Below are positions 11,199 through 56,702 of a stretch of 64,000 nucleotides of DNA, piece after piece. This stretch comes from a phage. Position 1 is the first letter of the stretch. Every line of letters starts with the position of its first letter. The DNA lies in the NCBI GenBank assembly GCA_025812035.1, contig GCA_025812035.1_4719.1; one strand, written 5' to 3'. The notes below the pieces were generated by a model, which had not been told where the DNA came from, ran no database searches, and worked only from the letters and a program-made list of their open reading frames with translations. A program made the translations under genes and the position numbers.

Positions 11199-11574
11199 GA
11201 GTCGCTACCTCATACCCGCAGCTTTACCTGCAGCTTCCGGTGTTACCGGAATGTCCAGAATACATCTTATCCATATTCCAAATGGAACGTAGGACTTCCG
11301 CGCTGGATCTCGCTTGAGACCACGTATTCGTTGAACCTGCGTTGTTTCACATTCTTGCAAACAAGAATGCCGTATTGCTACGCAACAACCAGGCTGCTGA
11401 TCGAACATTGTCATGTACGGTAGGCATCCCCGAAGGGACTGTCATTGAAGCCGCGTACATCCGCTACCTTGTTTCTACCTTATCGGTTCCTCTTACGAGG
11501 CGTAGCGGCCTTAGCCCTTCCCAGCAATTCACGGAATCCAAGCTCTTCCTTTCGGAAGGCAGGGCCTATGATTA
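11184..11574 (-). other. possible second intron or unexplained 390-nt spacer between the DGD micro-exon and the downstream beta-prime segment
   Basis: Contains GGTTCAACGAATACG (R-like) and AAGATGTATTC (S-like); ends ...ACG before ATGAACAACCAT; no convincing P1 pairing found by eye. Confidence 0.25.
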
Positions 11575-11587
11575 AGCGTCACCGTCG
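11575..11587 (-). other. candidate 13-nt micro-exon CGACGGTGACGCT completing NADF-DGDA
   Basis: Only GAYGGNGAY in the interrupted region; lies 20 nt after the endonuclease stop; joined to exon 1 at the proposed splice site it gives GAC TTC GAC GGT GAC GCT, restoring NADFDGD. Confidence 0.35.
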
Positions 11588-13028
11588 CTTACGTGCACCG
11601 ACGTTTATTAACTCATGGTTATCCACTGAAATACGGCGTTAGGGAAATAATCCTTCTTGCCGCGTTTTGAGATTTGCAATGCCATATTACTCGGAGACAA
11701 TCTGTAATGCCATGCTGCTTCATCGATAGAACTAAACTTCTTTGTTTCGCCGTTATCAAAGATGATTTTCAACGCTAGTTTAGGTAAATCGTCTTCCGTT
11801 TCTACTAGTTCGAAAGAATCGATATTCTCTGCCAGCGTTAACGGATCAACAGGTAATATCAGCCAACCAGCACGCTGCAATCCTCCACGTAGACTAATTT
11901 GTTTATTCAACGCAGGGGTAGCCATGCCAACTAACTTAGCAGCCAGCTTGCGGTCTTTAATATAAAGACGATAATCTCCGGTATTATTAATAGCATACAC
12001 ACCAAAGTTATTGAACGATACCTTTCCAGCATCGGAACTAGTAAAGCCTACAAAGTCGTGGCTGTCGGTAGCCACGTCGTATTTAAATGCTAATGGCTTG
12101 TTTCGACTGCCGCTAAGATACTTCTTGGCTGTAGATACCGATATGTTGAGATATCGTCCAATAGCATTCAAACTTTCTAGTTCGATGATTTCTCCTGTCA
12201 ATATGTCCTTTAACCGAACATTACCCATCGGTATTGGTGGTTTACCGACATAACCCAATTCACGATATGCGTGTTTCAAGTTATCTGAATCAGTAGCCCA
12301 TTCCAAATTTTCTAGTCTGTTATCCCAACGCACTCCATTAAGATGATTAGGGACACGACGGATTATACCTGACGTCGGATCTGGGTTAAATGTTTCAAGG
12401 ACGATCTGATGATGGTATTTCACTTTGTTGTTCCTAGTGAAAGCGCGATAGTTGTTTTTGCCCGACTTGGGTGGTTCAGTACGAAACAACACTGTCAGAC
12501 TAGACACATCTACTATCGTACCGTTCTTATTAACAACGATACCATCAAAACCATTAACAGGACGATAATCAGACAAACAATCTTCAGAAATTGCCTGTCC
12601 AACTAAAGGTTCACTCAATTTGACCTCCTTTATAAAAGAAGTCGGTGCACGTAATTATCGACTATATCTTCATCCTCGTTGCGAGGAGTCTCCCGTTTTG
12701 GTCTGTGTTTAACAGAGCCTACTCTACTCGACATCGCGTCTTTCGATAGTCTGTGAGCACACATCTTAACGAACATTCGTGGATTCCTAAGCAGGTGAAC
12801 GTTCTTGTTGAGATGCTTCGCTGCGGATTATTCCCGTCCTACCTCTTTTACCATACCCAGTTCATTACGCTGGCCCTCATCTGTGTCACCACGATGAGTT
12901 GGTGTGTAGTCCGATTACAGAAACTTCCCGTCAATTAGAGAGTTTTAACTACGTTCCTGTTACCAGAAACCCGACTCCGACGATATCAATTAAATCAACG
13001 TAAATTATTGATTTAATTGAAGAAACTG
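11588..13028 (-). mobile_element. putative group I intron carrying the HNH homing endonuclease ORF, inserted in the beta-prime catalytic motif
   Basis: Coding-strand elements upstream of the endonuclease ORF: CAGACTATCGAAAG (plus 12741-12753, R-like) and AAGATATAGTCG (plus 12659-12670, S-like); candidate guide sequence GAGTCGG (plus 12971-12977) pairs with exon end CCGACTT with a terminal U-G; proposed 5' splice after GACTT and 3' splice after GTAAG; boundaries are inferred. Confidence 0.5.
11608..12618 (-). CDS. HNH homing endonuclease (TTG start)
   Basis: HNH motif KYHHQIVLETFNPDP...NHLNGVRWDNRLENLEWAT plus C-terminal helix-turn-helix-like DNA-binding repeats; no in-frame ATG, starts at TTG with AAGGAGG 5-6 nt upstream; sits inside the interrupted beta-prime gene. 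Confidence 0.8.
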   Translation of the reverse strand: MSEPLVGQAISEDCLSDYRPVNGFDGIVVNKNGTIVDVSSLTVLFRTEPPKSGKNNYRAFTRNNKVKYHHQIVLETFNPDPTSGIIRRVPNHLNGVRWDNRLENLEWATDSDNLKHAYRELGYVGKPPIPMGNVRLKDILTGEIIELESLNAIGRYLNISVSTAKKYLSGSRNKPLAFKYDVATDSHDFVGFTSSDAGKVSFNNFGVYAINNTGDYRLYIKDRKLAAKLVGMATPALNKQISLRGGLQRAGWLILPVDPLTLAENIDSFELVETEDDLPKLALKIIFDNGETKKFSSIDEAAWHYRLSPSNMALQISKRGKKDYFPNAVFQWITMS

Positions 13029-14284
13029 AAGTCGGCATTATAACCTTTCAAGATCATCACGCTTAACCCGATGGTGTTATCCTGCGGATCGCGTTTAACC
13101 TTGGTGATTTCAAGACATTGGTTACTGCTTCGGTCAAGTGATGGATTTCGAACAAAACCACACACAATCCCATCAAACGGTGTATCAGCAATAAGCTCAT
13201 CGTGCAGCTCGCTCATCATCGGATGATAATTACGGACATGTTCCGCAACGAACGCACGTGCTGCTCTTGGTGAATAACCACGATGGAATAACTTGGATTG
13301 GATATGTTCTTTATTGGTTAATGTAAATGGCGCGTATGGGAAATGCAGATGATAATAACGATGGTTCGCTGTTATCGAACTGATTACGGTACGCGTGGTG
13401 AATGGATGTAATGTACCTAATATGTTTTTACGTGTGATACCTTTCTTCTTACCGATGAACTCATCGAAAATCGCCGAGTGGTACTGCAGCAGCTTCAGTT
13501 GTACTTTCGCCATCCAGTTTTCTTTCTTTCTGGCGCTCAAAGGTGTTGTTGGGTGATAGATACTATTCAATGTACCGATAGCATCGATCGCACCTTCCAT
13601 TTTGCTATCTGCATAACGACCGGTTGGTGTATTCTCGATAACGAACATCATGGCGGCAGGAAAACTGATATACTGGCTGAAGAACTTATCGCGATGAATG
13701 CGGGTGAATTCTCGTAGCGTATCAACTTTCTCCGTGTTCTTCGGTCCGCGTAACGTAGGTCCTTTATACAAGATCTCCATGATGCGATCGAAGTTCTGTA
13801 TAAAGCTATTTATCCCACGTCGTATCCCGAATACATCGAATTGCTGCTCCAGATAGTTCTTGAGTTCGATGGGTCGTTTTACGTTTGGACGGTAACTGGC
13901 ATCAATGAGCCACGTCATCGTTTCAAAGCTTTTGATATTCAACTCGCTTGCCAGCACGAGATGGACCAACGGGTTAATAAACGCATCAATTCCTTCAGGA
14001 ACACGCGCCCAAACCGTCGAACGAATCTCTTGTTCTGCTGGGTAGGTTACAACCGTTTTACAGTTTGGACACACCGTGCCAAGCAGCTCACCACGATTGT
14101 AGAAACCACATCCACATTGTGGTGTGATATCCAACGTATCGCTGGAGTAAACACGGGTGATAAAACTGTTTAATTTCTTCTTCTCTTCGACGACTTTTGT
14201 GTCGTAATCATTCAACAAAATAGGCGTAAAAGGAAGTTCTGCGAGCTGTCTATCGAAACTCACGATATCGAGCATGATGGCCAT
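13013..14284 (-). CDS. multisubunit RNA polymerase beta-prime N-terminal portion (exon 1), ORF runs into intron
   Basis: Zinc ribbon CGCGFYNRGELLGTVCPNCKTVV (compare E. coli [23 protein letters not shown]); GKKKGITRKNILGTLHPFTTRTVISS (compare [23 protein letters not shown]); frame ends GYNADF-SFFN-stop, i.e. inside NADFDGD. Confidence 0.75.
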   Translation of the reverse strand: MAIMLDIVSFDRQLAELPFTPILLNDYDTKVVEEKKKLNSFITRVYSSDTLDITPQCGCGFYNRGELLGTVCPNCKTVVTYPAEQEIRSTVWARVPEGIDAFINPLVHLVLASELNIKSFETMTWLIDASYRPNVKRPIELKNYLEQQFDVFGIRRGINSFIQNFDRIMEILYKGPTLRGPKNTEKVDTLREFTRIHRDKFFSQYISFPAAMMFVIENTPTGRYADSKMEGAIDAIGTLNSIYHPTTPLSARKKENWMAKVQLKLLQYHSAIFDEFIGKKKGITRKNILGTLHPFTTRTVISSITANHRYYHLHFPYAPFTLTNKEHIQSKLFHRGYSPRAARAFVAEHVRNYHPMMSELHDELIADTPFDGIVCGFVRNPSLDRSSNQCLEITKVKRDPQDNTIGLSVMILKGYNADFSFFN

Positions 14285-14376: not shown

Positions 14377-16272
14377 TTAGAACAGGTTGAATGCCCCACC
14401 CATGTTGTTACCACCAACGTTCGGACGATCGCTGCGTGCGTAGATGCTACCGGAGATATTACCCAGACCACGAGCACGTGCTGCCATGTTACCACGAACA
14501 GCGGTACCCGCCAGATGCTGGATATTCTCAGGACGGATGGTGAAGCCAGCTTCAGCAGCTGCTTCAATCAACGCAGCAAGCGCTTGCGGTTCGAAGTCGT
14601 AACGCATTGCCCAACCGGTTTGTTCCCAGCTACCAGACAGAACACGATCGATGATTTCGTGACGAGCGACAACACGCTGAGACATCGACATATCGGTACG
14701 GTCGAAGCTGTCTTCCCATGCTTCTACGGTATCCGGGTTAGTGATGTTCATCATGTACAGATCGTCCATATCGCGAATATCGTGACGGTTACCATCCTGG
14801 TGGTTGTAGTGACCCAGCGGGATACGGTTACCGGTAGCGTAGACCAGCGGTTGACCGTATTGATATTTCTTGCTGAAGCAGCCCAGGGTAGTATCATCGA
14901 AGGCACGGAAGAGTGCTTTGTAACCTTCAGAGACTTCCCGAACATCAGCCTCAACATTACCCGTATAGATCTTCTCAGCCGCCGGGATCATACGCAACAG
15001 CCAGCTGTATTCGCCTTCTTCCGGCACGTCGATAGAAATCAGCAGGGACGGATACAGTACCTGTTGCAGGAACTTGTAAATCTGCTCATTGGTTTGAGTA
15101 GACAGATCCAGCGGTGCGGTAACTTCCGGATCCAGCACCATCGCCAGAGCACCCGGGTTATGCGGACCGATACCACGAGCAGCGTTGCTGATTAAAGACT
15201 GCGCCCATGCCATGCCGCTGTTCAGCGTAGCAATGGTACCAATCAGACCCAATACAAAAGTATTCGGTGTGAATGCGTCCAGCTCCAGCGGGTAAGCGCT
15301 GGTCATCACGTAACGCGGCTGGTATTGTACAGTCGGCGGTACCGGATAACCGTTAACCAGAACAGGACCTTGGTTGAAGGTCGGGTTCTGCGGGCTGTAG
15401 GTCAGGTCGATATAGCCGGTAGTTGCGACCAGACGCTGCTGGCTATCGTAATCGCTCATCGCTTGACGGATGCGGTTAGAGATAGTTACAGTGATGTCGG
15501 AACGCACTGGGTTACCAACGATATCGCTGTCCTGCATACCGCTGGTGTTATACTGAACGCTGCTGATCGGCTGATCGCTTGCCATCATGCCCAGGTTGAA
15601 CTGCGGCAGGCCCAGTTTATCACCGAGACGGATTTCGATTGCGGTTTGGATTGCGTTATCTGCAGCAGACAGCAGGGTGGTTGCCAGGTGTGCAGATTCA
15701 GCGGTGATTTCATTGGTCACCACAGCCAGACCAGCGATACGAACAGTACCATTAGCCTTGCCACCAATAGCCGCATACATTGCCGCCATGACTTCGTTGA
15801 TGAACGTGCCGTTCAGGTTATCAACCCAGGTACGCGGTACCAGAATGTTACCATGCGGACCTTGTTCTTCACGACGCGGCAGCGGAGCCAAACCGGCAAC
15901 CAGCGGAAGCACATAACCGAAGAAGTGGTTATGATCACCAACTTTCGCACCACTCATAACCACCAGGGTCGGATACGGTACACTGTACTGACCAGGATCG
16001 ACAGTCACCATGATGAAGTCGTCTTTAAAGCCTTTATCTTCCAGTTCTTTTTCCATCAGACGACGGAGGTTCAGTACTTGCTCAGAACCGGTGTTACGGC
16101 TAATACGACGACTCAGTGTACGGTTGATCGTACGCATCGTATGAGTCACTTTAGGCTGGCCAGCAAAGTCTGCAGCGGTTTCCAGCGCTTCATCTGCACG
16201 TTGTGCGGTGCGGGTTTCAGCTGCACGAATTTCTACATTATCGTTACCGTTTTTACGTACGTCTAAGCCCAT
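14377..16272 (-). CDS. candidate phage-nucleus shell protein (chimallin-like), otherwise abundant early protein
   Basis: 631-aa monocistronic unit between TATATTACC box (16345-16353) and terminator hairpin (14327-14350), adjacent to the zinc-ribbon beta-prime gene as chimallin is in phiKZ; length is close to described chimallins as I recall them; no sequence-level confirmation. Confidence 0.4.
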   Translation of the reverse strand: MGLDVRKNGNDNVEIRAAETRTAQRADEALETAADFAGQPKVTHTMRTINRTLSRRISRNTGSEQVLNLRRLMEKELEDKGFKDDFIMVTVDPGQYSVPYPTLVVMSGAKVGDHNHFFGYVLPLVAGLAPLPRREEQGPHGNILVPRTWVDNLNGTFINEVMAAMYAAIGGKANGTVRIAGLAVVTNEITAESAHLATTLLSAADNAIQTAIEIRLGDKLGLPQFNLGMMASDQPISSVQYNTSGMQDSDIVGNPVRSDITVTISNRIRQAMSDYDSQQRLVATTGYIDLTYSPQNPTFNQGPVLVNGYPVPPTVQYQPRYVMTSAYPLELDAFTPNTFVLGLIGTIATLNSGMAWAQSLISNAARGIGPHNPGALAMVLDPEVTAPLDLSTQTNEQIYKFLQQVLYPSLLISIDVPEEGEYSWLLRMIPAAEKIYTGNVEADVREVSEGYKALFRAFDDTTLGCFSKKYQYGQPLVYATGNRIPLGHYNHQDGNRHDIRDMDDLYMMNITNPDTVEAWEDSFDRTDMSMSQRVVARHEIIDRVLSGSWEQTGWAMRYDFEPQALAALIEAAAEAGFTIRPENIQHLAGTAVRGNMAARARGLGNISGSIYARSDRPNVGGNNMGGAFNLF

Positions 16273-17685: not shown

Positions 17686-19839
17686 TTACTCTGCGGCTTC
17701 TTGCTTCGGTAAATAACTTGCAGCGATATCTTGAGCTAACAATGTATTATTTTTATTCGAGATGAAAATACCGTAACTTTCCATCAACGCGTAATACGAA
17801 CGAACAAGCGTAGAGATCAGTCGACGAATATCCATACCTTGAATAAAGATATCAGGAAGCCCGGAGGCTTCGATCACCGGTAATGGTATCGTTAAATTAC
17901 TTATTGTTTTCTTATCGTTACGTACAATCCAATCGCGGAAACGTTGTTGTAACCCTTTATCCTCCCATGAATCAATCCAATCATTAAGAAGCGTTTTGTT
18001 CTTCGTCGCCAACGGCACACGAACCCCAACATAAGGAGGTTCGGAGCAATGGCCGTACGATTGAGCAAACACCTCTTCCCACATATCGTAAGACTGTTTC
18101 GTTACTGCAACATGTGGTTTCACTTTAACACGTGTTAAGAAATCGGGGTCACCTCGTTTCATTGACTCAACGATTTCGTTTTCTAACGAGATGATATCAT
18201 CAAGAACCAATCGAATACTGATCTTCTCGTTACGTAACAGCTTATCCATGATACCACACATCATCCGCTCAACACGTTGGACGATCATCTTCGGCGCTGA
18301 TGCGTCGCGCATAACTGGGCCTTTCAATTCCAGCTTCGGTGGATTGATAGGAACCCCTTCACGCATGGTCATGTAACCGTAATAGTTTTTACCCATCGAG
18401 GTTAACGACAGGATCAAGAACATATATTCGTTCTTCATTTCCATCACGTACATATGCTCTTTCGCCACACCGATATTACCAGAGCACATCGCCATCAGAT
18501 GAACCGTGATCTGTGTAACCAGATAGATAAGCGTGTTGGCTAAGCGCGTCGAAACTGGATTGATCTCCATATTCCCAAATCGCCACTGAACCCACTCCTG
18601 ACAGGTAAATACCGTTGAGTCGGTATCGGACAACACCCCCACTTCACGGATCGCTGATGGGAAAGCATAAACACCCGCCGGTTGGTTCTCGGTACGCCAG
18701 AACGCCATAATCAAGTCAGCGTAACCTTGAATACGTTGCAACATTAATTTTGTCGTTGCTGCGGTAAGACGATAACCAAGTTCATTTCCTTTTTCTAGCG
18801 CGACGTAAATCGCTTCTCCATTCAAGAACTCCGTGCATTGTGCTGTAATCCATGCGACGGTGTTGTTATCCATGGAAGCAATAATGGCTTTAGCTTCTTC
18901 CATCGTTTCAACAGGTTCGGATGCCAGTTCACATAACGAGTCAAGAAAATGACGAACGAATTCAGGATTAAGCTCACGTAACGAGTACAGGTTATTGCTG
19001 TACATATAGCAAGCGCGTTCCAACGGGGTTAAACCAGTGATTAGCTCCCGGATGACCAATTCTTTCTCTGGGTCGAAAGTGTACCGATGCAAGCATTTCG
19101 ATACGTTAGCCCAAACCTCTTCCGGCGTAGGGTAATGCAGTTTGTATTTTACCATCACCTGCTCAATGGCGTTACGATCGCTATTGCGAACAATGCTTAC
19201 GATGTTTTCAATTGCGATATCACAATCGTAATAATGGAAATTGCCTGCCAGGAAGCGTTCATTGTTCGCATTGGCCGAACCTGAAGCGCAGCGACATGTT
19301 GTTGTTAAACTCGGATGCGCAATCGGATTATAAAACGGATTAAACTTGGACGCCTGTGTTCCCGACAAACTGTTGTTATCTAACTTGGTGTTGGTTTGTC
19401 GTTTATCGTGTAGTTCAGCTTCGTCTTTACGTCCGTGTGCTTGTGCTATCGACATTTGTTTCTTTTGTTTCTTACGCAACTTACCGTTTTCAACCGCAAA
19501 GTCGCTTAGCACGCTGGAACGTGTCTCGCGTGGATAACAGTTAGCCCATACCGGCGTGATAATTAAATTATTTTCTTTAATATCGTTGAAATATTGACTG
19601 AACTTGATGACTTCTTTTTCTCGATTTCCTTCGGTACGCTGTGTTAAAACAAGACAGTCGGGATCAACCATCCCGTATTTTCCGCCAGGACGTACCGTAT
19701 CAAGAACAAACTGCAGCGCTTCCTGCTGCGATATCCCACGCATGCGCATTAAGAACAGGGTATAATCCTGCACCGCTTCTTTGGTCATATCCAACGTACG
19801 ACCGTATCCGTTTTCATCGTAAAAGAACGGATTTTCCAT
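17686..19839 (-). CDS. hypothetical protein with family-B DNA polymerase-like motifs (divergent)
   Basis: Ordered motifs NNLYSL (SLYPS-like, but lacking the catalytic Asp), TKLMLQRIQG (compare phi29 KLMLNSLYG), VLSDTDS (YGDTDS-like), GKNYYG (KxY-like); assignment is tentative. Confidence 0.3.
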   Translation of the reverse strand: MENPFFYDENGYGRTLDMTKEAVQDYTLFLMRMRGISQQEALQFVLDTVRPGGKYGMVDPDCLVLTQRTEGNREKEVIKFSQYFNDIKENNLIITPVWANCYPRETRSSVLSDFAVENGKLRKKQKKQMSIAQAHGRKDEAELHDKRQTNTKLDNNSLSGTQASKFNPFYNPIAHPSLTTTCRCASGSANANNERFLAGNFHYYDCDIAIENIVSIVRNSDRNAIEQVMVKYKLHYPTPEEVWANVSKCLHRYTFDPEKELVIRELITGLTPLERACYMYSNNLYSLRELNPEFVRHFLDSLCELASEPVETMEEAKAIIASMDNNTVAWITAQCTEFLNGEAIYVALEKGNELGYRLTAATTKLMLQRIQGYADLIMAFWRTENQPAGVYAFPSAIREVGVLSDTDSTVFTCQEWVQWRFGNMEINPVSTRLANTLIYLVTQITVHLMAMCSGNIGVAKEHMYVMEMKNEYMFLILSLTSMGKNYYGYMTMREGVPINPPKLELKGPVMRDASAPKMIVQRVERMMCGIMDKLLRNEKISIRLVLDDIISLENEIVESMKRGDPDFLTRVKVKPHVAVTKQSYDMWEEVFAQSYGHCSEPPYVGVRVPLATKNKTLLNDWIDSWEDKGLQQRFRDWIVRNDKKTISNLTIPLPVIEASGLPDIFIQGMDIRRLISTLVRSYYALMESYGIFISNKNNTLLAQDIAASYLPKQEAAE

Positions 19840-23616: not shown

Positions 23617-23937
23617 TCATTTTCTCCCTCTTCGAATACCACCGATACCTCTTCGATCCAAGACGTCCCATGCACGTTTTATTTCATCCTCCGTTGCTCT
23701 GGTATCTGGAGGGACAACCATAACACAATCGTGGAATGGCCAGTGCGTCGGTCTAGGGTCAGCAAATAGATTATCCCATTCAAGCGTCCATGATTGCTTT
23801 GAACGATTATAGTAGATCGTAAGGTACGTATTAGTGTACGCTGGGTAACCACGCATAACTTCAACATCTTTACGATCCTGCCGTTCCTGATTCCAATCGT
23901 TAAATCGTTTTCTTATTTTATCCCATCGCTTTCCCAT
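23617..23937 (-). CDS. hypothetical protein (trimmed to internal Met; track ORF extends to 24081)
   Basis: ATG at 23937..23935 has AGGAG 6 nt upstream and sits directly after a hairpin-UUUUAUGCCGU module at 23950-23980; the longer track ORF would read through that hairpin. Confidence 0.5.
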   Translation of the reverse strand: MGKRWDKIRKRFNDWNQERQDRKDVEVMRGYPAYTNTYLTIYYNRSKQSWTLEWDNLFADPRPTHWPFHDCVMVVPPDTRATEDEIKRAWDVLDRRGIGGIRRGRK

Positions 23938-23949
23938 GCTTTCTCCTAC

Positions 23950-23980
23950 ACGGCATAAAAGCCTGCCCCGAAGGACAGGC
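23950..23980 (-). terminator. hairpin followed by UUUUAUGCCGU
   Basis: GCCTG/CAGGC stem then UUUUAUGCCGUG, 18 nt before ATG at 23937. Confidence 0.5.
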
Positions 23981-23990
23981 TCGATAGAAC

Positions 23991-24191
23991 TTAACGACCA
24001 TCCAATTTCAACGAAGGATGGTTGACGATATGTGCGTGTTTTGCTGGGTCGTATGGCAGATATGGAAAATAACCATGCCATTCACGACCTTGGCATTTCG
24101 TACACACGAACTGACCACCGCTCCGTTGATTCTCGTAAGCGAGTTCAGTACTATCAACATGACCGCAACGTTCGCAGATAAACAGCGACAT
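23991..24191 (-). CDS. small zinc-ribbon protein
   Basis: Two CxxC pairs (CERCGH ... CTKCQG) in a 66-aa ORF. Confidence 0.45.
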   Translation of the reverse strand: MSLFICERCGHVDSTELAYENQRSGGQFVCTKCQGREWHGYFPYLPYDPAKHAHIVNHPSLKLDGR

Positions 24192-24228: not shown

Positions 24229-25209
24229 TTAGAATAGCAAGAAACCGCTGTTCTTCGCTTCCGCTACAGTTTCGTCACCAACTTTCGGTGCCTGTTGACG
24301 CGCGTTACGATGTTCAATGTAACGTTTCGCTTCGTCAGCGATTTGTTTGATAATACCCCCTAAACGATCGGTACTTAAAACAAACGACGTCGCTTCACGG
24401 ATTGGGCTGCTGTCAGGCACAAAACCGTCACAACTGTAAATAGCGTTAACACCCATGACTTTTGTCGCGTCTTTCGGATAAAGCGTACAGAAAGCAATGG
24501 GGCTATCGTTCTCTTTTGTCCAATCGTATCCCATGAACGTATTCAGTTCGGTGATCGTTGGTTCCAAACCGGTAACACGTGGATGGTTCAAGAAGTTTTC
24601 CAGGTCAGCGCTGTCAAGACGACGGTTCTCACCAGAAAACAGAACACAAAGCTGGCTAATAACAACCTGCACGTCCAGGTTGACATCCTGCTCCGATTTC
24701 CCATTTTCGCCATTCATGTGATAGCTGACGATCACCGGACGTTTCAACCCTTCTGCGGCTGCCATCAGTCCTTTAAAGGTGCGGTCTGCGTTGATCGTCT
24801 GACGCTCATCATCGAACGAGGCAACGATGCAACATACCACACGTTCACCGCGTTCCAGCAGGTTAGCAACCAACGCAGGACCTGCAACAGAACCCGAACC
24901 ACCGCTTAAACTAAAGACCACGATATTAAATTTACCTGGCGTATGTTTGTTGAGAATACCTGGGATTTGTGAACAGATCAGTTCAGCGTTCTCGTCACGC
25001 TTCTTACCCGAACCGTCTAACTCGCGGCCTGCTGCATCTTTAAAGATGTAAATATGATCATCGTCCAGTGTGCTATCGCGTAGGTTAGCACGGCTGGTAT
25101 CGACATACGTCATGCTGTGTAATCCTTTCGCGACTTCGCCTTCAAACGCTGAGCCGATTTCGCCACCACAACCGCCGACAGCCCAAATATGTACTTGGTT
25201 CTCTTGCAT
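24229..25209 (-). CDS. phuZ: tubulin/FtsZ-like GTPase, PhuZ-like phage tubulin
   Basis: N-terminal glycine-rich loop IWAVGGCGGEIG (FtsZ/tubulin T1-like) and SLSGGSGSVAGPALV (GGGTGSG-type signature loop); about 326 aa with a C-terminal tail, typical of PhuZ; AGGAG before the ATG. Confidence 0.7.
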   Translation of the reverse strand: MQENQVHIWAVGGCGGEIGSAFEGEVAKGLHSMTYVDTSRANLRDSTLDDDHIYIFKDAAGRELDGSGKKRDENAELICSQIPGILNKHTPGKFNIVVFSLSGGSGSVAGPALVANLLERGERVVCCIVASFDDERQTINADRTFKGLMAAAEGLKRPVIVSYHMNGENGKSEQDVNLDVQVVISQLCVLFSGENRRLDSADLENFLNHPRVTGLEPTITELNTFMGYDWTKENDSPIAFCTLYPKDATKVMGVNAIYSCDGFVPDSSPIREATSFVLSTDRLGGIIKQIADEAKRYIEHRNARQQAPKVGDETVAEAKNSGFLLF

Positions 25210-25273
25210 GTGAACTCCTAACTTAGTATGTATTTAACGCACAATGAATCTTTCTTTACTAAAGGGGTGACCC

Positions 25274-26116
25274 ATGGGTGCTATTGACTACAGTGTAGAT
25301 CGTATCTGTCGTACAATACCGGCAGATATCCTACAGTATTGCTATATCGATCGTTACGACTGGCGTAACCGATATCCACGTTCCGTCGAAGACATCATTA
25401 CCGATTGGGTAATTCGTAAACGGGTTATCGGCGACATTGATATCTACGGGGGACTACAAACCGTTGTTCCCCTTGATGATGCAGGTGTTACTATCGAAGA
25501 AGTCACCATTAACTGTTATGTTTTCCATATTCCATTGGAAGCCACACAGGGACGTTATATCACGTCCGCATTATCCATTATTTCAGGGAGTGTGAACAAC
25601 TACGGTATAAACTATAACGGTCAATGGGGCGCTTTCAACCAAACCCAGTTCCAACGACAGCTTTGCGGATGGAACCCTGCAAGCAACACATTACAGCAAG
25701 GGATGAACGCATTCGGTCCCATGAACGTTCTTAGTACAGCGAACGTTGATATCATCGCTCCTAACACCATCATGGTGAACAACGTCACGCCTGTGCAGTT
25801 TCCACTGAGTCTACGTTGTTTCCTTGCCCACGATCCGGAACTCACCAACCTCAGCATGGAGGTTTGGAACGACTTCTACAAACTCTGTTTATATGCCACA
25901 CAAAGTGACATTTACAACAGAACCGTTATCCGTCTTGATAGAGGTGTTACCGCACAAGGACAAGAAGTCGGTGCATTCAAGGAATACATCGACCGCTTTG
26001 CTGACGCTGAAAACACGTATCAAGAATTCCTGAACGAAACGTGGGCAGGTGTTGCCGCATGGAACGATCCACAAACTAAACGTCGCGCTATTCGTTTGCA
26101 AACCGGTTACTTCTGA
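25274..26116 (+). CDS. hypothetical protein
   Basis: ORF in track; followed by hairpin 26130-26154. Confidence 0.5.
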   Translation: MGAIDYSVDRICRTIPADILQYCYIDRYDWRNRYPRSVEDIITDWVIRKRVIGDIDIYGGLQTVVPLDDAGVTIEEVTINCYVFHIPLEATQGRYITSALSIISGSVNNYGINYNGQWGAFNQTQFQRQLCGWNPASNTLQQGMNAFGPMNVLSTANVDIIAPNTIMVNNVTPVQFPLSLRCFLAHDPELTNLSMEVWNDFYKLCLYATQSDIYNRTVIRLDRGVTAQGQEVGAFKEYIDRFADAENTYQEFLNETWAGVAAWNDPQTKRRAIRLQTGYF

Positions 26117-32909: not shown

Positions 32910-35141
32910 TTAGAAAAAACCTCCCGGACGGTACTGACCCATCGTCATCCACGCATTACGAGAAATATTTCGTTCGTTCGAAGAGCGGCTTATCTGACGA
33001 TAAGTATTCGCACGTTCCTCCCTTGCTTTCGTGATCATCGCGTCAATAGAAACGGACGCTGAATCCTCTCCACGTATTTTTCCTTTATACGTAAGAAGCT
33101 CTGCCTCCAACCGATCCAAGATAAGACCGTTAGTTTCGGTTTTAAGCAACTCATAGATTTCAGCAACGCGCTGACGCAATTTCGTCTGCTGTTGGTTCAG
33201 ATAAGCTTCGTACGGATCAATTTCACCCGTTACAGATGCCGGTAAACGACTCATGACTTTAAGCGGATCGATACCGTAGTGAATCTGTTTCTTAGCGCGC
33301 TTAATGAACCACATCGCTAACATCCATGCGAAGGTCATGTCATCGTGCATGCCATCCTGGTGGTCGACACGCCCGTCTTTGATAACCAATCCAAGGATCT
33401 CAGAACACAGCATCTTGTCACGTAACTGCCCGCGGGTTTCTACAATACCTTCCATCAAGATGTCGGAATACAACTCCATACGTTTGCGTGCATCCGTCGT
33501 GAAGCCTAAATGCCGTTTACGTTGAGCGTACCAACTTTCGTCACGCATACTCAATGGTAACTTCAGGTCTTCAAACATCGCTGGGTTATCGGCGTGTCGG
33601 TCCACAATGGTGTTGTACACGCGTTTGAACACGTCGATACCTGCTTGTCTCAGGAACTCTTCAATCGCGTCTAGCAACATGATTGCACTGCTTTTACGTT
33701 CAGGAATCAACGTAACGTTCTTATAGCGCATCATGAAGTTGGCCATCCAACGAGCAAAAGAAAGCAAGCTTAGTTTATTGAAACGTCCTGTAGCGACAAC
33801 TTCTGCTGTTTCCACATCTACCATCACCAGACCGATGGCATCACGACCGATAGCGTCACTGGTGTCTAAACCCGCAACCACCTTATTGTTCTGCATGTAC
33901 GTCTCGATTTGACCTCGGGGTATATACCAGTTAATGCAGTAGCCTTCGGGTGAGATCTCAATATGGTCGATTTCACGTTGCCCTGCCATGATCATCTCAA
34001 CCATCTCAGCGGTTAACGGGCTTTCTGCTGAACCGTTGGTCCAGATGTTCATGTAGTCGCGGTCTTTCTGAAGTTTATCACCTTCCGTTTCGTTCATGGT
34101 TTTTGCTAACCATTCATCACTGAATCCCAACTGAGCATGGTTCCATTGTGCCCCGATCCTGACAGTCGCTTTACTAAGCTCGCACGGTACGTTGTTCAAT
34201 ACCGTCTGATGCAGATGCTTTTCGTTACGACAGTCAAAGAAACTTTCAGAGAACGGCGCTGAACGCATGAAAACTTCATAGGCCCATTTACCTTCACGTT
34301 TATCCAATTCACCCGCTGTTGTCGTATAGATGATACTTGTCAAGTCGCCGTTGCTTAACGCTTCATCACGCGCCGCACCCATCGCACCGATACCAGCAGG
34401 AACAATAATTTCGATGTACTTTGTAAACGCGGTTTCGTCGCTATGGAATATCGGGGTTGTTAGACCACGACCGATGTTTGTTGCTTGTTTCTTATCCGAA
34501 CGTGGGATCTTCACCGATAACTTGTTCTTGAAACGTGTGTAGGTCACGTTCTCTTTGTTCGATGAGTCACGACTATCCAACGTCCAAAGATACGCAGGTA
34601 ACAGGTCGCGTATACTGCGCACGTCTTCTACTGTTTTCGTACGAGCATCACCGTCTTTTGTTAGCTGAATAACCTCGGTGTTTCGACTACGAACATAGGT
34701 TAGATAACAGAACAATCCCAACATGGTCATGGATTTACCGGTCTGACGTATCTGTATCTGATACCAGTTCGTTCGGGTAAATATTCCCCAGAGCATCGGA
34801 ATGTTACCGCGGTTAGCGCGGAAAGAAATTTTGTTATCACCCGCTTTAGCTGGAACGCGCATCACTTCACGGAAGAAGTACCACGGATTAAGATAGCATT
34901 CCGCACCGATCATCTGAATTTGTTCTGACGTCAAATTCGGTGCGTGGGGATCAACACCAATCAATCTTGGGTTTAATAGCGCCATGAAAAACGCGGAGTT
35001 TCGGACACCGAATTCACGGCGATACAAGATCGCTAAATCACGCCAACTTGTGTTTGTGGTTTCCCAGTGTGGGACAGCCTGAGGAAAATAATCCCAATCT
35101 TCCTCAAACAGGATGATTTTTTTCGGATCGACAATCGACAT
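32910..35141 (-). CDS. terL: terminase large subunit
   Basis: Walker A-like IRQTGKSMT in the N-terminal half; C-terminal nuclease-like acidic motifs VVAGLDTSDAIGRDAIGLVMVD and DHQDGMHDDMTFAW; 743 aa. Confidence 0.7.
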   Translation of the reverse strand: MSIVDPKKIILFEEDWDYFPQAVPHWETTNTSWRDLAILYRREFGVRNSAFFMALLNPRLIGVDPHAPNLTSEQIQMIGAECYLNPWYFFREVMRVPAKAGDNKISFRANRGNIPMLWGIFTRTNWYQIQIRQTGKSMTMLGLFCYLTYVRSRNTEVIQLTKDGDARTKTVEDVRSIRDLLPAYLWTLDSRDSSNKENVTYTRFKNKLSVKIPRSDKKQATNIGRGLTTPIFHSDETAFTKYIEIIVPAGIGAMGAARDEALSNGDLTSIIYTTTAGELDKREGKWAYEVFMRSAPFSESFFDCRNEKHLHQTVLNNVPCELSKATVRIGAQWNHAQLGFSDEWLAKTMNETEGDKLQKDRDYMNIWTNGSAESPLTAEMVEMIMAGQREIDHIEISPEGYCINWYIPRGQIETYMQNNKVVAGLDTSDAIGRDAIGLVMVDVETAEVVATGRFNKLSLLSFARWMANFMMRYKNVTLIPERKSSAIMLLDAIEEFLRQAGIDVFKRVYNTIVDRHADNPAMFEDLKLPLSMRDESWYAQRKRHLGFTTDARKRMELYSDILMEGIVETRGQLRDKMLCSEILGLVIKDGRVDHQDGMHDDMTFAWMLAMWFIKRAKKQIHYGIDPLKVMSRLPASVTGEIDPYEAYLNQQQTKLRQRVAEIYELLKTETNGLILDRLEAELLTYKGKIRGEDSASVSIDAMITKAREERANTYRQISRSSNERNISRNAWMTMGQYRPGGFF

Positions 35142-50585: not shown

Positions 50586-53500
50586 TTATTTAGCGTCGTT
50601 AAAATAAATATCAACAGCTCGTTCCGTTGCGTAGAGGAGACCAAGGTTCACAGTCCCAACCACTTCCGGCGAAGCGATGATACGGTTAGCGATACTGGTG
50701 CCACTGAAGATAGCATCAAGGGTGTGCCCGTCTTCGGTTTTGTTCACACCATGACCCACGGAAGAGACAACGGATTTCGCTTGTGCTGCGAAGGTACCCT
50801 TATCACCCATCCCCGCACCAAGGTCGTAACGCATGAAAATACGGATGGCGATCTGGTTCTCGCCTAACGGATTACCGTCTATTCTCACGTTACTGTTGTT
50901 GATACGCCCCGTCGTTGCTTCATTGAGTTTCAGTTCCTTGACGCGTTTAGCTCGCGCTTTATCCGCATCGCCGACGAGCGCCGCCATGGTTTCACTCATA
51001 TCCTCAATCTGAGCGCGGTACAGCACATCGATCTGTACAACTTCACCATGAACGTCAGCACGTGGGTTATACTGACTCATACGACGTAATGCTTCAACAG
51101 CTTCCTGACTCTCATCACTCAGATCGGTTGCGATCGGTTCTTCCAGTGTTGCAAGAATCGTTCGAGGTTCAACATGATCGCCGATTTTTACGAGACCACG
51201 AATGTTGAGATGGGCGTCAACAATGAGCGTACGGCTCTTAATCGATGGTGTTACGAGACGATCGGCAAGATTGTCGAAGATATACGAACTGTCCTCGTGC
51301 GTCTCTGGAATATCCAGAATACCGACAAGAGACAGGACGCCTGCGCGCCAAACAACCTGACCTGGGTTCCACCAATCGCGTTTAAAATAAAGACGATGGA
51401 AAACCACCACGTCCTGATCCTTAACGCGATCCCCAACTTTATAATCGGTAATGAGGTCGTGAGGATAATACTTACCTGGTCCTTTCCCGATTATCGTACC
51501 GAGTTGGAAAACCTCTTCTCCTAACTCTGGATCGTCGTATTGTACCGTAAGCGCAGTTTTGGTGACCTTCTTAACAACACCATCGCCTTGGGCAGCTGCG
51601 GCGAAGAGTTTACCGACACGATGCGCGATAACAGTCTCGCCACCCGTACGCCATGGTTGTACATCGTAACCTTCAGCAGCAATCATGCGGTTGTGTTGGA
51701 TCCCGACGAAGACCAGACGTTTTCCATCGTCACGGTCTACAGCCGGAACAGCTAACGCCGATGTACTCATTACCGATGAGATGCCGTCTGTCTTTTCATC
51801 GAATGGTCGTGTTTCACCATATACAGACACGATATTAGCATTAGGTGCCAGATAGGCAGAAATACCTACATCCCCGCTATCCTTCGTACCTTCTGATACA
51901 ATACCGACATCTGACTTATCGTATTCACGATCGCGTGCGCGGCGAAGCGATGTCTTTGAGCGACCCCCGATACCGGTCATCGTTGCTTCTTCACCCTGCT
52001 TGATATCCAGCATCGGGTTGGTTTCATCGATCACGATGGACGCGCTGTCGTCGAGAATTTGGTTCCAGACACTCACTGGACTGATTGAGATTTTCTGTCG
52101 GTTTCCTTGACTGCTGTTCTCGTTTTGACGAATAGCACCAACCAGGTCCTTATACACCAGCTCAGCGAACTTATCGTACGTTTTAAAACGTTGGTAGTTC
52201 ACATCGTTCGTGTTAGGTGCCCAATCATCCAGAAGCAGTTCAACAGCACGCAGCAACAACATGGCGAAATCGGTAGGTTCTCCCATGTTCTGTAATAGCG
52301 TACGGCTTACCGGATCGACGAAAAGACGCTCCATGAGTTCAAGTTCGCGTAAATGGCGAACCTTAAGTCCAGCACCATCGACAACGTTAAAATAGATATC
52401 TCGATTGTCAAAAGCACCGCGAGCGTAACCGATGTAGTTACGGTATTCGTTAAACCCACCCATCAACAACGTCGTCATGCGATCGTCTTTACTGAAGATC
52501 AAACTTTCGTCGTCGAAGCTCACCGCGAACTCGTCTGATGCTAAACCCATACGAGAGCCACGAGGAACAGTACGATAATTCGCTTTAAGATGTTCTAATA
52601 ACGGGGTAAGCCCACCCAGATAACTTAGAACAACGCCAACCGGAATACGTACGCCCATGAATTCAAGATCGGCAGCTTCGATTGGCATCTTAGCCGCATT
52701 GATGCCGAAGAAATCAGGGAACGTCCCTACAGGTGTTGGTGTTTGTCCTGACTGACAGATATAGAGCTGGTTGCGTTCATCGATCGCTAAGAATTCGCCC
52801 GACGTATTACGCGCGAACGTCAGGAGTCCTTCGGCTAACTGTTCGTTGAACCGATCTTCCCCAATGAACTCCGGTAACGTTTTTATATCGAGACGTATAT
52901 CCCAATCAGCGAATTGGATTTGGGTATAATTGCGCGCAAGCACGGCGAAGTAATACGGGACTTTGACAGCCGGATCAAAGACGTTACCACGTTTTAACGT
53001 TGTTAAGGGCGAGGACTTATCGTAATACATCGCCGTAAGTTGACGTGTTAGCCAACGACCAGCGTTATTAACGACGCGCTCTGAACGTTTAACGAACACC
53101 TTACCGTAGGCGGTACTCAACGCAACTTCGGATGACGATACCTTTCTAATAGGTTTATCAACGCGCTGTTTACGCATCCGGTACTTGATACCGTTAACAA
53201 CATAAATGCCATCCTTACGAACCTTCGGCAACATCACCGGGAACGTGGTTGGGACACCGCCTACAGGAGCCAGTTTAATCGTGATGACTTGATAATCCCC
53301 CATCACGTCAACAACATCTTCAACTTTATATCCCGTAACAGGGTAACCTGCTTGCTGTACCGCAACAACGGCAGCTGCGATGTCCTTTTGCATTACATGT
53401 TCAACGTAATGTTTATCCCACACCGCGAGCGTTGATTTACATAAGCTCTTATCAACGATAACATCCGCTTCCGGCATAACCTTTGCGGGAGCTAGTTTCG

Positions 53501-54932
53501 CGGCTTTTGGTTTAACTTCAACATATTCAGCGAGCGTTAATCCAGAACCGTCAGGTGCTTCGATTTCGTGGATGGCGTCAGCATTACGCATCGCTGCTTT
53601 ATATTGGACGCCACTTAACTGACCTGCATCCGCCAGATCGCTCGCACGCACCAACACCGCATCCGATAACGACTGAATATACTCACCATGTGTTTTTGGT
53701 AACGTTGCTGCGTCAAAGACATCAACCTTTTCTTCGGCGGTATCGTCGGGGACGACTTCGAAGAGATCGTCGGTAATGTCCTGATCTTCATCAGGTTGGA
53801 AATCCGGTTGTACTTCTACCCCAGGTACTTCACGAACATCTTCAAACGTGCGCTCTACGATTGCGTTCCACGCATCAGCATCATCGTCTTCATCCGACCC
53901 ACCGACCAACTCCGCTTCTAACTCATCGGGGTCAAGAACAGTGGCCAGATCCTCACCGTTAGGAAGCACGACATCGCGATCATCGTACTCCGCATCCGGG
54001 CTGTCCGCAAGAATATCTCGCTCTTGACGAAGAACCTGTTCCTCTTCTTGTTTCTGTTCTTCTTCATTCGCGCTCTGCGACCACAGACGTGTTACCGCCA
54101 TCATCCAACGACGCTGGAAGGTTTCAAGTGTCGTTTTATCGAGTTCTTCCCCTTCCTTTACGAGCCCGGTACGCCATTCCTCCAGCAGACCGAGATTCAG
54201 CGTAAAGAAGTACACACCGTCTGTAAATACAACGTTAAGCTTATCCAGCGTGGCTCTGTCTAACGAAGCCATCGTGCTGTTCTCACGATCGGTTCCCAAC
54301 CAGCGGAAGAAGTCAAAGAACGACAGCTCCTCCGGTGTGGCGAAATTCATGAGGTTGTTACGGGTCGGTGCCTGTTGCGTGGTACGCATCAACGAAATCT
54401 TCGGCAATGTTGACGGTATACGGAACAACAAAAAGTGTTGACGATCGCTTTGCTGGGCGATTTCGTTGGCTTTCGACCAAATTGTTTTACGTACGTTGAA
54501 CCACTCATCGTACCAACGGGTGAGCGTTGGACGATAGATGTACATGTGGTTAAGATGCGCGTAGTTAGCAACGATCTGCGCGTTGATGTTTTTCTCCACC
54601 GTGCTTAGATCGGTAACCAAACGAAAACGACGATGTGATGCACGATAATCCAATTTCGCTCGTGGAAGTTGGAATCGTTGATCGCGTCGAGGTGCGCCCT
54701 GTTTGGTTGCGAGATCATCAGCAAACGAAATCCATAGTTGAGCATTTTCTTTACTCAGCATGTATTCGTTTTCTGGAGGACCTATCAATGATGGATCCGT
54801 TGCGGTGTAATGATAGACAGCATAACGCGGCAGCTGCAATAGCTGCACTAAACGTAATCTCGGTGACAATAGCTCTTGGTATCGTCTGACGCCAAACTGT
54901 CGGTAGTAATCAAGGTATTTAAGTTTTGCCAT
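50586..54932 (-). CDS. multisubunit RNA polymerase beta-like subunit (large, divergent; likely virion RNAP component)
   Basis: C-terminal region IAIRIFMRYDLGAGMGDKGTFAAQAKSVVSSV...EDGHTLDAIFSGTSIANRII parallels beta-subunit [30 protein letters not shown]...[26 protein letters not shown]; ORF ends before the RFGEME region; hairpin plus U-tract after the stop. Confidence 0.6.
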   Translation of the reverse strand: MAKLKYLDYYRQFGVRRYQELLSPRLRLVQLLQLPRYAVYHYTATDPSLIGPPENEYMLSKENAQLWISFADDLATKQGAPRRDQRFQLPRAKLDYRASHRRFRLVTDLSTVEKNINAQIVANYAHLNHMYIYRPTLTRWYDEWFNVRKTIWSKANEIAQQSDRQHFLLFRIPSTLPKISLMRTTQQAPTRNNLMNFATPEELSFFDFFRWLGTDRENSTMASLDRATLDKLNVVFTDGVYFFTLNLGLLEEWRTGLVKEGEELDKTTLETFQRRWMMAVTRLWSQSANEEEQKQEEEQVLRQERDILADSPDAEYDDRDVVLPNGEDLATVLDPDELEAELVGGSDEDDDADAWNAIVERTFEDVREVPGVEVQPDFQPDEDQDITDDLFEVVPDDTAEEKVDVFDAATLPKTHGEYIQSLSDAVLVRASDLADAGQLSGVQYKAAMRNADAIHEIEAPDGSGLTLAEYVEVKPKAAKLAPAKVMPEADVIVDKSLCKSTLAVWDKHYVEHVMQKDIAAAVVAVQQAGYPVTGYKVEDVVDVMGDYQVITIKLAPVGGVPTTFPVMLPKVRKDGIYVVNGIKYRMRKQRVDKPIRKVSSSEVALSTAYGKVFVKRSERVVNNAGRWLTRQLTAMYYDKSSPLTTLKRGNVFDPAVKVPYYFAVLARNYTQIQFADWDIRLDIKTLPEFIGEDRFNEQLAEGLLTFARNTSGEFLAIDERNQLYICQSGQTPTPVGTFPDFFGINAAKMPIEAADLEFMGVRIPVGVVLSYLGGLTPLLEHLKANYRTVPRGSRMGLASDEFAVSFDDESLIFSKDDRMTTLLMGGFNEYRNYIGYARGAFDNRDIYFNVVDGAGLKVRHLRELELMERLFVDPVSRTLLQNMGEPTDFAMLLLRAVELLLDDWAPNTNDVNYQRFKTYDKFAELVYKDLVGAIRQNENSSQGNRQKISISPVSVWNQILDDSASIVIDETNPMLDIKQGEEATMTGIGGRSKTSLRRARDREYDKSDVGIVSEGTKDSGDVGISAYLAPNANIVSVYGETRPFDEKTDGISSVMSTSALAVPAVDRDDGKRLVFVGIQHNRMIAAEGYDVQPWRTGGETVIAHRVGKLFAAAAQGDGVVKKVTKTALTVQYDDPELGEEVFQLGTIIGKGPGKYYPHDLITDYKVGDRVKDQDVVVFHRLYFKRDWWNPGQVVWRAGVLSLVGILDIPETHEDSSYIFDNLADRLVTPSIKSRTLIVDAHLNIRGLVKIGDHVEPRTILATLEEPIATDLSDESQEAVEALRRMSQYNPRADVHGEVVQIDVLYRAQIEDMSETMAALVGDADKARAKRVKELKLNEATTGRINNSNVRIDGNPLGENQIAIRIFMRYDLGAGMGDKGTFAAQAKSVVSSVGHGVNKTEDGHTLDAIFSGTSIANRIIASPEVVGTVNLGLLYATERAVDIYFNDAK

Positions 54933-54935
54933 GGG

Positions 54936-56582
54936 TTAGGCTCCACGAGGTCCCGTTAAGTTGCGTAATAGGAACGCAACCGTATCGTAACCAATATCGA
55001 TGTTGAATTTATTTTTACCACTTACCCAGAAAGCACGTTTCTTGTGCGAGTTGGTAATTTCGTCAATGGCTTCCATGGAATAAAGAACGTTAACCGAGAC
55101 CGTATCGCCATCAAAGTCCCCACCAAGTCCGGCGAGGTACGGGGCTGGAACAATAGTCGTTTCTACGAACGAAGCATTAGGTAACCAATCTGGGTATTCC
55201 CATGCGATAAATCGCTCATCCGTTATTGGTTCCCAGTTACTATCCAGTTCGGTTTTCGGTTTTGCTGCAACGGTCGTACGCGCATAACAGGTTAACGGAA
55301 TGACGGATTGCATACCCGATACCGGATAACGTGTTACCATCGCTGCCAGGTTATTCCAGTATTTATATCCAGCAATATAGATAAGCTCAGTATACGTAAT
55401 GGGGTGAACATCCGCCCCGGGTTTGTTAAGCATCTCTGGGGGTAATTCACTCATACCACGGAATAACCGAAACGAATCATTATTCACATAGACCAGGCAG
55501 AGATAACGTCCATTGACCATGATAGGTTCGTTACGCACACCTGGATCGCTTAAGGTGTTCAGTAAACGTTCTATCCCATCCCATGTTGTAAAGTCATCGA
55601 TGGTGTCTGGATCAAGCGTGACGCGTTCACGTTCCATCGTTTCGGTATCAATAAGTTCAACTTCTGTAACATCACGGACAAATATTTCCTGCAAAATCCC
55701 CGTACGTAACGCATGTTGCGTTACTGGGAGAGCAGCTTTACTCATCTGGTATAACCCTAACTGAACTGCAGTACAGGAAGGCTGGTTAGGCGACCCTAGT
55801 ACCTCCGTTGTGGGGTTAATTGCTGAAATAACGTTACGGGTTGAGTTCCAAACACGACGTGAGCCGAACTTACCTTGGAAGATCCCTTTCTTACCTTGGA
55901 ACATATCCAACAACAAAGCGTAGATGTCGTTAAATGTTCTCTGTAAGCTCCAGCGCTGACCGTCGTAAACGGGATCCGAATAATCTTTTAATCCATCCGG
56001 GACGGTGTTAGAAATTGCCAGGAAACGACGATACAACTCTGTGATTTCTTGCTCGCTTTCATACCCGCCTTCTTTTACTTCTATTTCACGTAAACCCGCA
56101 GGTAAAACCAGTAGATGACGAGTCATCGCTTTGAACATGTTCTCTTCGACAACCTTGATTCGTAGCTCTCGTTGAGCTGAACCCGTTGAAACGAACTTGA
56201 TATCAGCGACGTGTTGTGCAAAGAACCCGTATCCTGTTTGTCCTGTTAGCGCATCGGACGCAACGAAGTCACGTTGTTCAGGATCCCAACGCGCGTACGC
56301 CTTCCCCGACATGATATCACCGTAGAGGTGTTTTAGTCGAATGAGACGATCGTAGATGACAGGGTGTAGGATTTCAACTTTGCATTCAATCACCGCAAAT
56401 CGACGGTCTCGATCTTCGCTACCCGCACTACCAAAGATGGTGTATGAATAGAAACCGTCATCGTGGAAATTACCGGTGCTTGGATCACGAATGCTCATGC
56501 TCGTGATCTTGGGGAGAAAACGTAACTGCTGTTTATCGAGGTGTAAAATGCTAATATTAAACGGCTCTCTGACTTTAGCCAT
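54936..56582 (-). CDS. multisubunit RNA polymerase beta-prime N-terminal-like subunit without zinc ribbon (start trimmed to MAKVREPF)
   Basis: RRFAVIECKVEILHPVIY (compare beta-prime RMGHIELAAPVAHIW), GKKGIFQGKFGSRRVWNSTRNVISAINP (compare [27 protein letters not shown]) and intact GGDFDGDTVSVN catalytic motif; GAGGAG 8 nt before ATG at 56582. Confidence 0.65.
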   Translation of the reverse strand: MAKVREPFNISILHLDKQQLRFLPKITSMSIRDPSTGNFHDDGFYSYTIFGSAGSEDRDRRFAVIECKVEILHPVIYDRLIRLKHLYGDIMSGKAYARWDPEQRDFVASDALTGQTGYGFFAQHVADIKFVSTGSAQRELRIKVVEENMFKAMTRHLLVLPAGLREIEVKEGGYESEQEITELYRRFLAISNTVPDGLKDYSDPVYDGQRWSLQRTFNDIYALLLDMFQGKKGIFQGKFGSRRVWNSTRNVISAINPTTEVLGSPNQPSCTAVQLGLYQMSKAALPVTQHALRTGILQEIFVRDVTEVELIDTETMERERVTLDPDTIDDFTTWDGIERLLNTLSDPGVRNEPIMVNGRYLCLVYVNNDSFRLFRGMSELPPEMLNKPGADVHPITYTELIYIAGYKYWNNLAAMVTRYPVSGMQSVIPLTCYARTTVAAKPKTELDSNWEPITDERFIAWEYPDWLPNASFVETTIVPAPYLAGLGGDFDGDTVSVNVLYSMEAIDEITNSHKKRAFWVSGKNKFNIDIGYDTVAFLLRNLTGPRGA

Positions 56583-56702
56583 GGAGACACTCCTCTTTAC
56601 CACCACCGGCGGCGGTATCATCTGAACACACGAGAGACGTAATGGGTGATGGCGTCACCCATCGCTTCCTTGCTTGAGGCGAGGAAGTTATTAGGTTACG
56701 TA

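Follow-up and report, generated by a model that had tools for sequence, protein, structure and literature searches.

Does the minus-strand open reading frame at positions 24229-25209 of this phage DNA encode a PhuZ tubulin, and what would such a gene reveal about the phage that carries it? The stretch analyzed (64,000 nucleotides; hereafter, the window) had been given a first-pass annotation from its letters alone, in which this frame was read as a PhuZ-like phage tubulin on account of two glycine loops at a tubulin-like spacing and, together with split multisubunit RNA polymerase genes, was taken to mark a phiKZ-like phage that builds a proteinaceous nucleus and a tubulin spindle. The frame is almost certainly the PhuZ tubulin of a Goslar-like chimallivirus of Escherichia coli, a nucleus-forming jumbo phage.

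The phuZ gene and its product

The list of open reading frames and their translations gives a gene of 981 nt that encodes 326 amino acids plus a stop codon; the ATG start and the TAA stop were read directly from the sequence, and the list contains no overlapping frame of more than 108 amino acids on the opposite strand. The gene and its motifs, with invariance judged from an alignment of six PhuZ proteins, are as follows:

24229..25209, minus strand: phuZ coding sequence (open reading frame list, PHROG 4733, PDB 9pm9_C, comparison with Goslar PhuZ)
25215..25219, minus strand: AGGAG resembling a Shine-Dalgarno sequence, 5 nt upstream of the start codon (read from the sequence)
25153..25179, minus strand: T1-loop glycine motif VGGCGGEIG, aa 11-19; G12 and G13 invariant
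24994..25014, minus strand: GSGKKRD, aa 66-72, resembling a T3 loop (G-x-G-K-x-R); G66, G68, K69 and R71 invariant
24880..24906, minus strand: SGGSGSVAG, aa 102-110, resembling the T4-loop tubulin signature; G103 and G106 invariant
24604..24615, minus strand: T7-loop DSAD, aa 199-202; D199 and D202 invariant
24232..24312, minus strand: C-terminal tail, aa 300-326, ending in NSGFLLF; G322 followed by hydrophobic residues in 6 of 6 PhuZ

The length and strand of the frame and the positions of its two glycine motifs are all as the first-pass annotation described them, and the tubulin-like spacing that it claimed is borne out: the distance from the T1 motif to the T4 motif is 91 residues, and both fall within residues 9-151, the part aligned to the Pfam Tubulin/FtsZ model. 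Its reading of the frame as a PhuZ-like tubulin is upheld by profile searches, in which the protein matches PHROG 4733 ('tubulin PhuZ') along nearly its full length (E=2.4e-68, 231.6 bits, residues 1-323 of 326 on profile positions 1-321 of 323), and by matches to solved PhuZ chains. The sole Pfam domain detected is the Tubulin/FtsZ GTPase domain (PF00091, E=5.6e-7, the 143 residues 9-151 on model positions 5-173 of 190), with a score of 30.5 bits that is just below the curated cut-off of 33, as expected for the divergent PhuZ branch. Because this score is below the cut-off, membership in the tubulin superfamily rests on PhuZ structures and not on Pfam.

A sequence search of the PDB matched 9pm9_C (E=2.5e-218), the phiKZ protein PHIKZ039 (3zbp/3zbq, E=2.2e-29, residues 5-291) and the 201phi2-1 protein (3r4v, 3rb8 and 3j5v, E about 3e-15, residues 65-297). 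The matches comprise four distinct PhuZ sequences and, as a fifth, 3j5v, the 201phi2-1 filament subunit; no chain of FtsZ, TubZ or eukaryotic tubulin was matched at E up to 1. Judged by sequence, 9pm9_C is Goslar PhuZ, because both have the same four differences from the protein of the window. A literature search for a paper on PDB 9pm9 and 9pmk returned only one methods preprint, which is unrelated. An AlphaFold2 model computed from the single sequence reached a pLDDT of 38.9 and a pTM of 0.42; the tubulin/FtsZ fold would follow from the near-identity (98.8%) with a chain of solved structure and from the homologous crystal structures of phiKZ and 201phi2-1 PhuZ.

The alignment included PhuZ of the window, Goslar, the phiKZ-type phage vB_Pae3705-KEN49, PhiPA3, RAY and PCH45; the protein of the window is 25-28% identical to the members other than Goslar. 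Twelve positions are invariant throughout (G12, G13, G66, G68, K69, R71, G103, G106, N140, D199, D202 and G322). The C-terminal tail is similar in length to those of its relatives, with a weaker acidic cluster than in the tails of the Pseudomonas phages. A tblastn search of deposited phages found PhuZ relatives in 187 records; among the matches listed, the genomes are of jumbo size (about 195-322 kb), except for one 26-kb bin, and Goslar alone is above 33% identity.

Goslar PhuZ (PDB 9pm9, 9pmk) has 326 residues, as in the window, of which 322 are identical (98.8%). The substitutions from the window to Goslar (D49G, D229E, N255S and D266E) include none of the four in a conserved column, and D202, the target of mutation in the work on Goslar, is conserved. 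Goslar phuZ also agrees with that of the window in genomic position, neighbors and orientation, and the gene of the window is evidently its ortholog (gp201 in GenBank numbering, gp234 in RefSeq numbering). Codons that differ between the two genes number 46, of which 42 are synonymous and 4 non-synonymous; given this ratio and the retention of all invariant family residues, phuZ is evidently under purifying selection.

The source phage and its nucleus-forming genes

The remainder of the window was inspected for genes that bear on the identity and life cycle of the phage:

14377..16272, minus strand: chimallin, main protein of the nuclear shell (PHROG 4795, Pfam PF25677, annotated 'nuclear shell protein' in Goslar)
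50586..54932, minus strand: RNA polymerase fragment gene, 1448 aa, ortholog of Goslar gp207 (PHROG 3148, E=0)
54936..56621, minus strand: RNA polymerase fragment gene, 561 aa, with intact GGDFDGD, ortholog of Goslar gp205 (PHROG 2986, E=2.2e-179)
13013..14284, minus strand: RNA polymerase fragment gene, 423 aa, ending in NADF at a group I intron (PHROG 2987, E=4e-117)
17686-19839, minus strand: jumbo-phage DNA polymerase
32910-35141, minus strand: large terminase

The chimallin gene is recognized both by PHROG 4795 (E=2.1e-54) and by Pfam PF25677 (Chimallin_Phikzvirus, 96.9 bits where the cut-off is 27). The three RNA polymerase fragment genes (PHROGs 2987, 3148 and 2986) agree with the split multisubunit polymerase of the first-pass annotation; one fragment carries DFDGD and another carries NADF|DGD. 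The Goslar orthologs gp207 and gp205 are virion RNA polymerase subunits according to mass spectrometry (preprint 10.64898/2026.04.21.720040).

PhuZ occurs in 66.2% of the phages that encode chimallin and can be dispensed with (PMC10299810). Being accessory, it is suggestive of a nucleus-forming phage without defining one, and its earlier description as a marker has to be softened to that extent: chimallin, not PhuZ, is the real marker of the nucleus. The inference of a nucleus-forming jumbo phage stands nevertheless, because chimallin is encoded in the same window, and the phage is a close relative of Goslar, which has been shown experimentally to form a nucleus.

By direct BLAST, the window is collinear throughout with positions 156666-222685 of Goslar, at 93.6-93.9% DNA identity, and the annotated 'tubulin PhuZ' of Goslar sits at exactly the corresponding position. 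When three segments of the window were run through Megablast, Escherichia phage vB_EcoM_Goslar was the only deposited relative found. The window represents 64 kb, compared with 237 kb for the Goslar genome. An identical PhuZ protein was found in 74 index blocks of public assemblies (24 contigs read), some of them contigs of 238-240 kb; the phage recurs as contigs of ~239 kb in ENA metagenomes and, in Logan assemblies of sequencing runs, on contigs that reach 139 kb. With the exact PhuZ in 74 index blocks, this relative of Goslar is thus common in sequenced samples, and it is not present in the collection of deposited phages. The metagenome loci with identical PhuZ differ from the window at 84-101 of 6,981 bases (about 1.2-1.4%).

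The genome size of more than 200 kb that characterizes the Chimalliviridae is indicated by the collinear 237-kb Goslar genome and by the 238-240 kb contigs with PhuZ. The source phage is a chimallivirus of the genus Goslarvirus, and the earlier term 'phiKZ-like' applies to it only in a distant sense: its PhuZ has 28% identity with the counterpart in a phiKZ-type phage. On the basis of 64 kb and not of a whole genome, the source phage may represent a second, undeposited Goslarvirus lineage.

An intron in an RNA polymerase gene distinguishes the two phages. An insertion of 2,045 bp in Goslar (NC_048170, 211754-213798), absent from the window, is the single large difference between them. It consists of an annotated group I intron with gp206, a 490-aa HNH_3/NUMOD1 protein, and it splits a virion RNA polymerase subunit gene inside the catalytic motif (GGD|FDGD). 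In the window this gene is uninterrupted (54936-56621, minus strand, junction at 55115/55117) and encodes 561 aa, in comparison with the truncated 502-aa annotation of Goslar. A second intron, which the window retains, interrupts a different fragment gene, after GYNADF and inside the universal NADFDGD motif, in a locus that spans 11572-14284:

13013-14284, minus strand: exon 1 of the intron-bearing RNA polymerase fragment gene
12642-13019, minus strand: group I intron core
11608-12618, minus strand: HNH/NUMOD1 open reading frame, resembling a homing endonuclease, after the intron core
11586-11572, minus strand: candidate exon 2, DGDA-stop, the sole downstream 'DGD', with putative splice sites

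The intron core matched the full RF00028 model in a relaxed search (47.8 bits against a cut-off of 50, E=2.5e-10), and Rfam at gathering thresholds had zero matches in the window. If the candidate exon 2 is genuine, DGDA-stop would restore NADFDGD. The intron polymorphism between Goslar and the window can be likened to the intron-endonuclease competition of PhiPA3 and phiKZ, and it predicts that the phage of the window would be a cleavage target of Goslar gp206.

Genes and signals beside phuZ

The following features flank phuZ:

23991..24191, minus strand: 66-aa open reading frame with CxxC...CxxC and WH, beginning 37 nt after the phuZ stop (Goslar gp235)
23960..23981, minus strand: GC-rich hairpin (-18.0 kcal/mol), then TTT(T)AT (sequence read and folded)
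23617-24081, minus strand: 154-aa open reading frame
25274-26116, plus strand: DUF7484 / PHROG 3179 gene

The 66-aa frame has no Pfam or PHROG family. In its homologs, C6, C9, C30, C33, W38 and H39 are invariant, in the manner of a zinc ribbon. Homologs of 35-47% identity follow phuZ directly in Xanthomonas phages LucasX and RTH11 and, 1.8 kb downstream, in Pseudomonas phage DT01. The hairpin is located just after the 66-aa frame, at the same position as the annotated putative terminator of Goslar just after gp235; the terminator scan missed it by reason of a strict T-run rule. The hairpin likely ends the phuZ transcription unit, in which phuZ and the 66-aa frame are probably cotranscribed. 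A scan for sigma-70 promoters around phuZ found 4, with 3.9 expected, which is chance level and uninformative because these phages use their own polymerases.

From the apparent shared unit and the same adjacency in the distant phages LucasX and RTH11, the four-cysteine protein could be imagined to act with PhuZ, for instance by nucleating or anchoring its filaments or by deciding between vortex and spindle, although such a role is improbable. As a constant companion of PhuZ the 66-aa frame was rejected: the two genes are not linked in Erwinia phage pEa_SNUABM_54, and in Xoo-sp14 the frame is present beside the adaptor gene of a phage in which PhuZ is undetectable.

In the open reading frame list, the 154-aa frame overlaps the 3' end of the 66-aa frame and spans the terminator hairpin. 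Goslar (gp236) and most metagenome annotations have only a 106-aa version, and the 154-aa call is found in one contig; the longer form probably has an over-extended start.

On the other side, the DUF7484 gene is divergent from phuZ across a gap of 64 nt. The same divergent pair is found in Erwinia phage RAY and Serratia phage PCH45, the PhuZ proteins of which are about 26% identical to that of the window. The DUF7484 ortholog of Goslar (gp233) is the portal adaptor in a cryoEM preprint on the virion (10.64898/2026.04.21.720040), by which the DUF7484 gene of the window gains a structural assignment as a portal adaptor. A functional partnership of DUF7484 with PhuZ was rejected on the same grounds, the adjacency being attributed to synteny of a structural block.

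Filament function and comparison with known tubulins

Goslar PhuZ filaments are seen from about 30 min after infection, and at 60 min a PhuZ vortex wraps the chimallin shell and reaches the membrane; the orientation of the filaments sets the direction in which the nucleus rotates, and the vortex rotates the nucleus without positioning it (PMC9891218; PMC12908238). The D202A mutant of Goslar PhuZ, which is dominant-negative, polymerizes at much lower expression and stabilizes filaments, abolishes the vortex and strongly reduces rotation, with nucleus position and phage growth unchanged (PMC9891218; PMC12908238). In the Pseudomonas phages, PhuZ filaments are three-stranded, dynamically unstable and treadmilling, and they also carry capsids to the nucleus (PMC9891218; PMC12908238). 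The factors that decide how PhuZ filaments are organized have been stated to be unknown (PMC12908238). The Avs5 paper, consulted for PhuZ as an immune trigger, names PhuZ as background only.

Because PhuZ of the window is 98.8% identical to that of Goslar, a vortex-and-rotation role may be proposed for it. By analogy with experiments on Goslar, 201phi2-1 and phiKZ, GTP-bound monomers would polymerize head to tail, each subunit supplying the T7 aspartates that complete the GTPase site of the next and so make the filaments dynamic, and the C-terminal tail would bind neighboring subunits. Late in infection, the filaments would form a vortex-like array around the chimallin shell, pushing on the cell membrane, and the resulting rotation of the nucleus may spread capsids over its surface for DNA packaging. 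Rotation would raise efficiency without being essential, and the filaments probably would not center the nucleus.

The tubulin spindle of the first-pass annotation belongs to the Pseudomonas phages and calls for correction, in that the nearly identical PhuZ of Goslar assembles into a vortex by which the nucleus is rotated (PMC9891218, PMC12908238). A bipolar spindle of the kind that phiKZ, PhiPA3 and 201phi2-1 build, with the nucleus centered at midcell, would accord with the family and the catalytic residues, which are the same as in spindle-forming PhuZ, and with the two long filaments that flank the nucleus in some Goslar-infected cells (PMC9891218). However, the catalytic mutant of Goslar PhuZ, a protein 98.8% identical to that of the window, left the position of the nucleus unchanged (PMC9891218; PMC12908238), and identity to the spindle-forming PhuZ of the phiKZ-type phage and PhiPA3 is only 25-28%, so that a spindle in the phage of the window is very unlikely.

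It is scarcely conceivable that the gene encodes a TubZ-like partition tubulin, segregating a plasmid or prophage genome by type III partition: PhuZ and TubZ share a superfamily, and a single Vibrio phage homolog among those deposited is annotated 'monomeric subunit of TubZ', but the PDB matches at E up to 1 include zero TubZ chains versus three PhuZ proteins, the neighbors of phuZ are a portal adaptor gene and small open reading frames with no TubR-type DNA-binding adaptor, and the genome is that of a lytic chimallivirus. That phuZ might be a decaying or non-functional copy, annotated by homology alone, would be compatible with the dispensability of PhuZ and its absence from about 1/3 of chimalliviruses (PMC10299810; PMC12908238); yet the frame is intact and full-length, differs from Goslar by 42 synonymous versus 4 non-synonymous codons with all invariant family residues retained, and its exact product recurs in the 74 index blocks (24 contigs read), which leaves decay with a negligible probability.

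The preferred reading, a Goslar-type PhuZ, describes a protein that is already known: for an ortholog, the cell biology has been published and a structure deposited. PhuZ serves as a fast and reliable classifier of the window, and in combination with chimallin and split RNA polymerases it leads to Goslarvirus within the Chimalliviridae. Few amino acid changes against many silent ones indicate that selection maintains this 'accessory' cytoskeletal gene in natural populations.

Beyond Goslar, PhuZ of phiKZ (gp39) has the T1, T4 and T7 motifs and the C-terminal glycine and hydrophobic tail in common with the protein of the window, to which the phiKZ-type PhuZ of vB_Pae3705-KEN49 is about 28% identical; unlike the Goslar vortex, phiKZ-type PhuZ forms a bipolar spindle that centers the nucleus. 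In 201phi2-1 PhuZ (gp59), which is about 27% identical to Goslar PhuZ (PMC9891218), RLDVHD aligns with the paired T7 aspartates of the window; a three-stranded filament and an acidic tail 'knuckle' have been demonstrated for this protein, whereas the tail of the window is less acidic. The N-terminal GTPase domain of PhuZ of the window aligns with the model of the tubulin/FtsZ superfamily, including TubZ and FtsZ, but the role of PhuZ lies in the mechanics of the phage nucleus rather than in the partition of plasmids or the division of cells.
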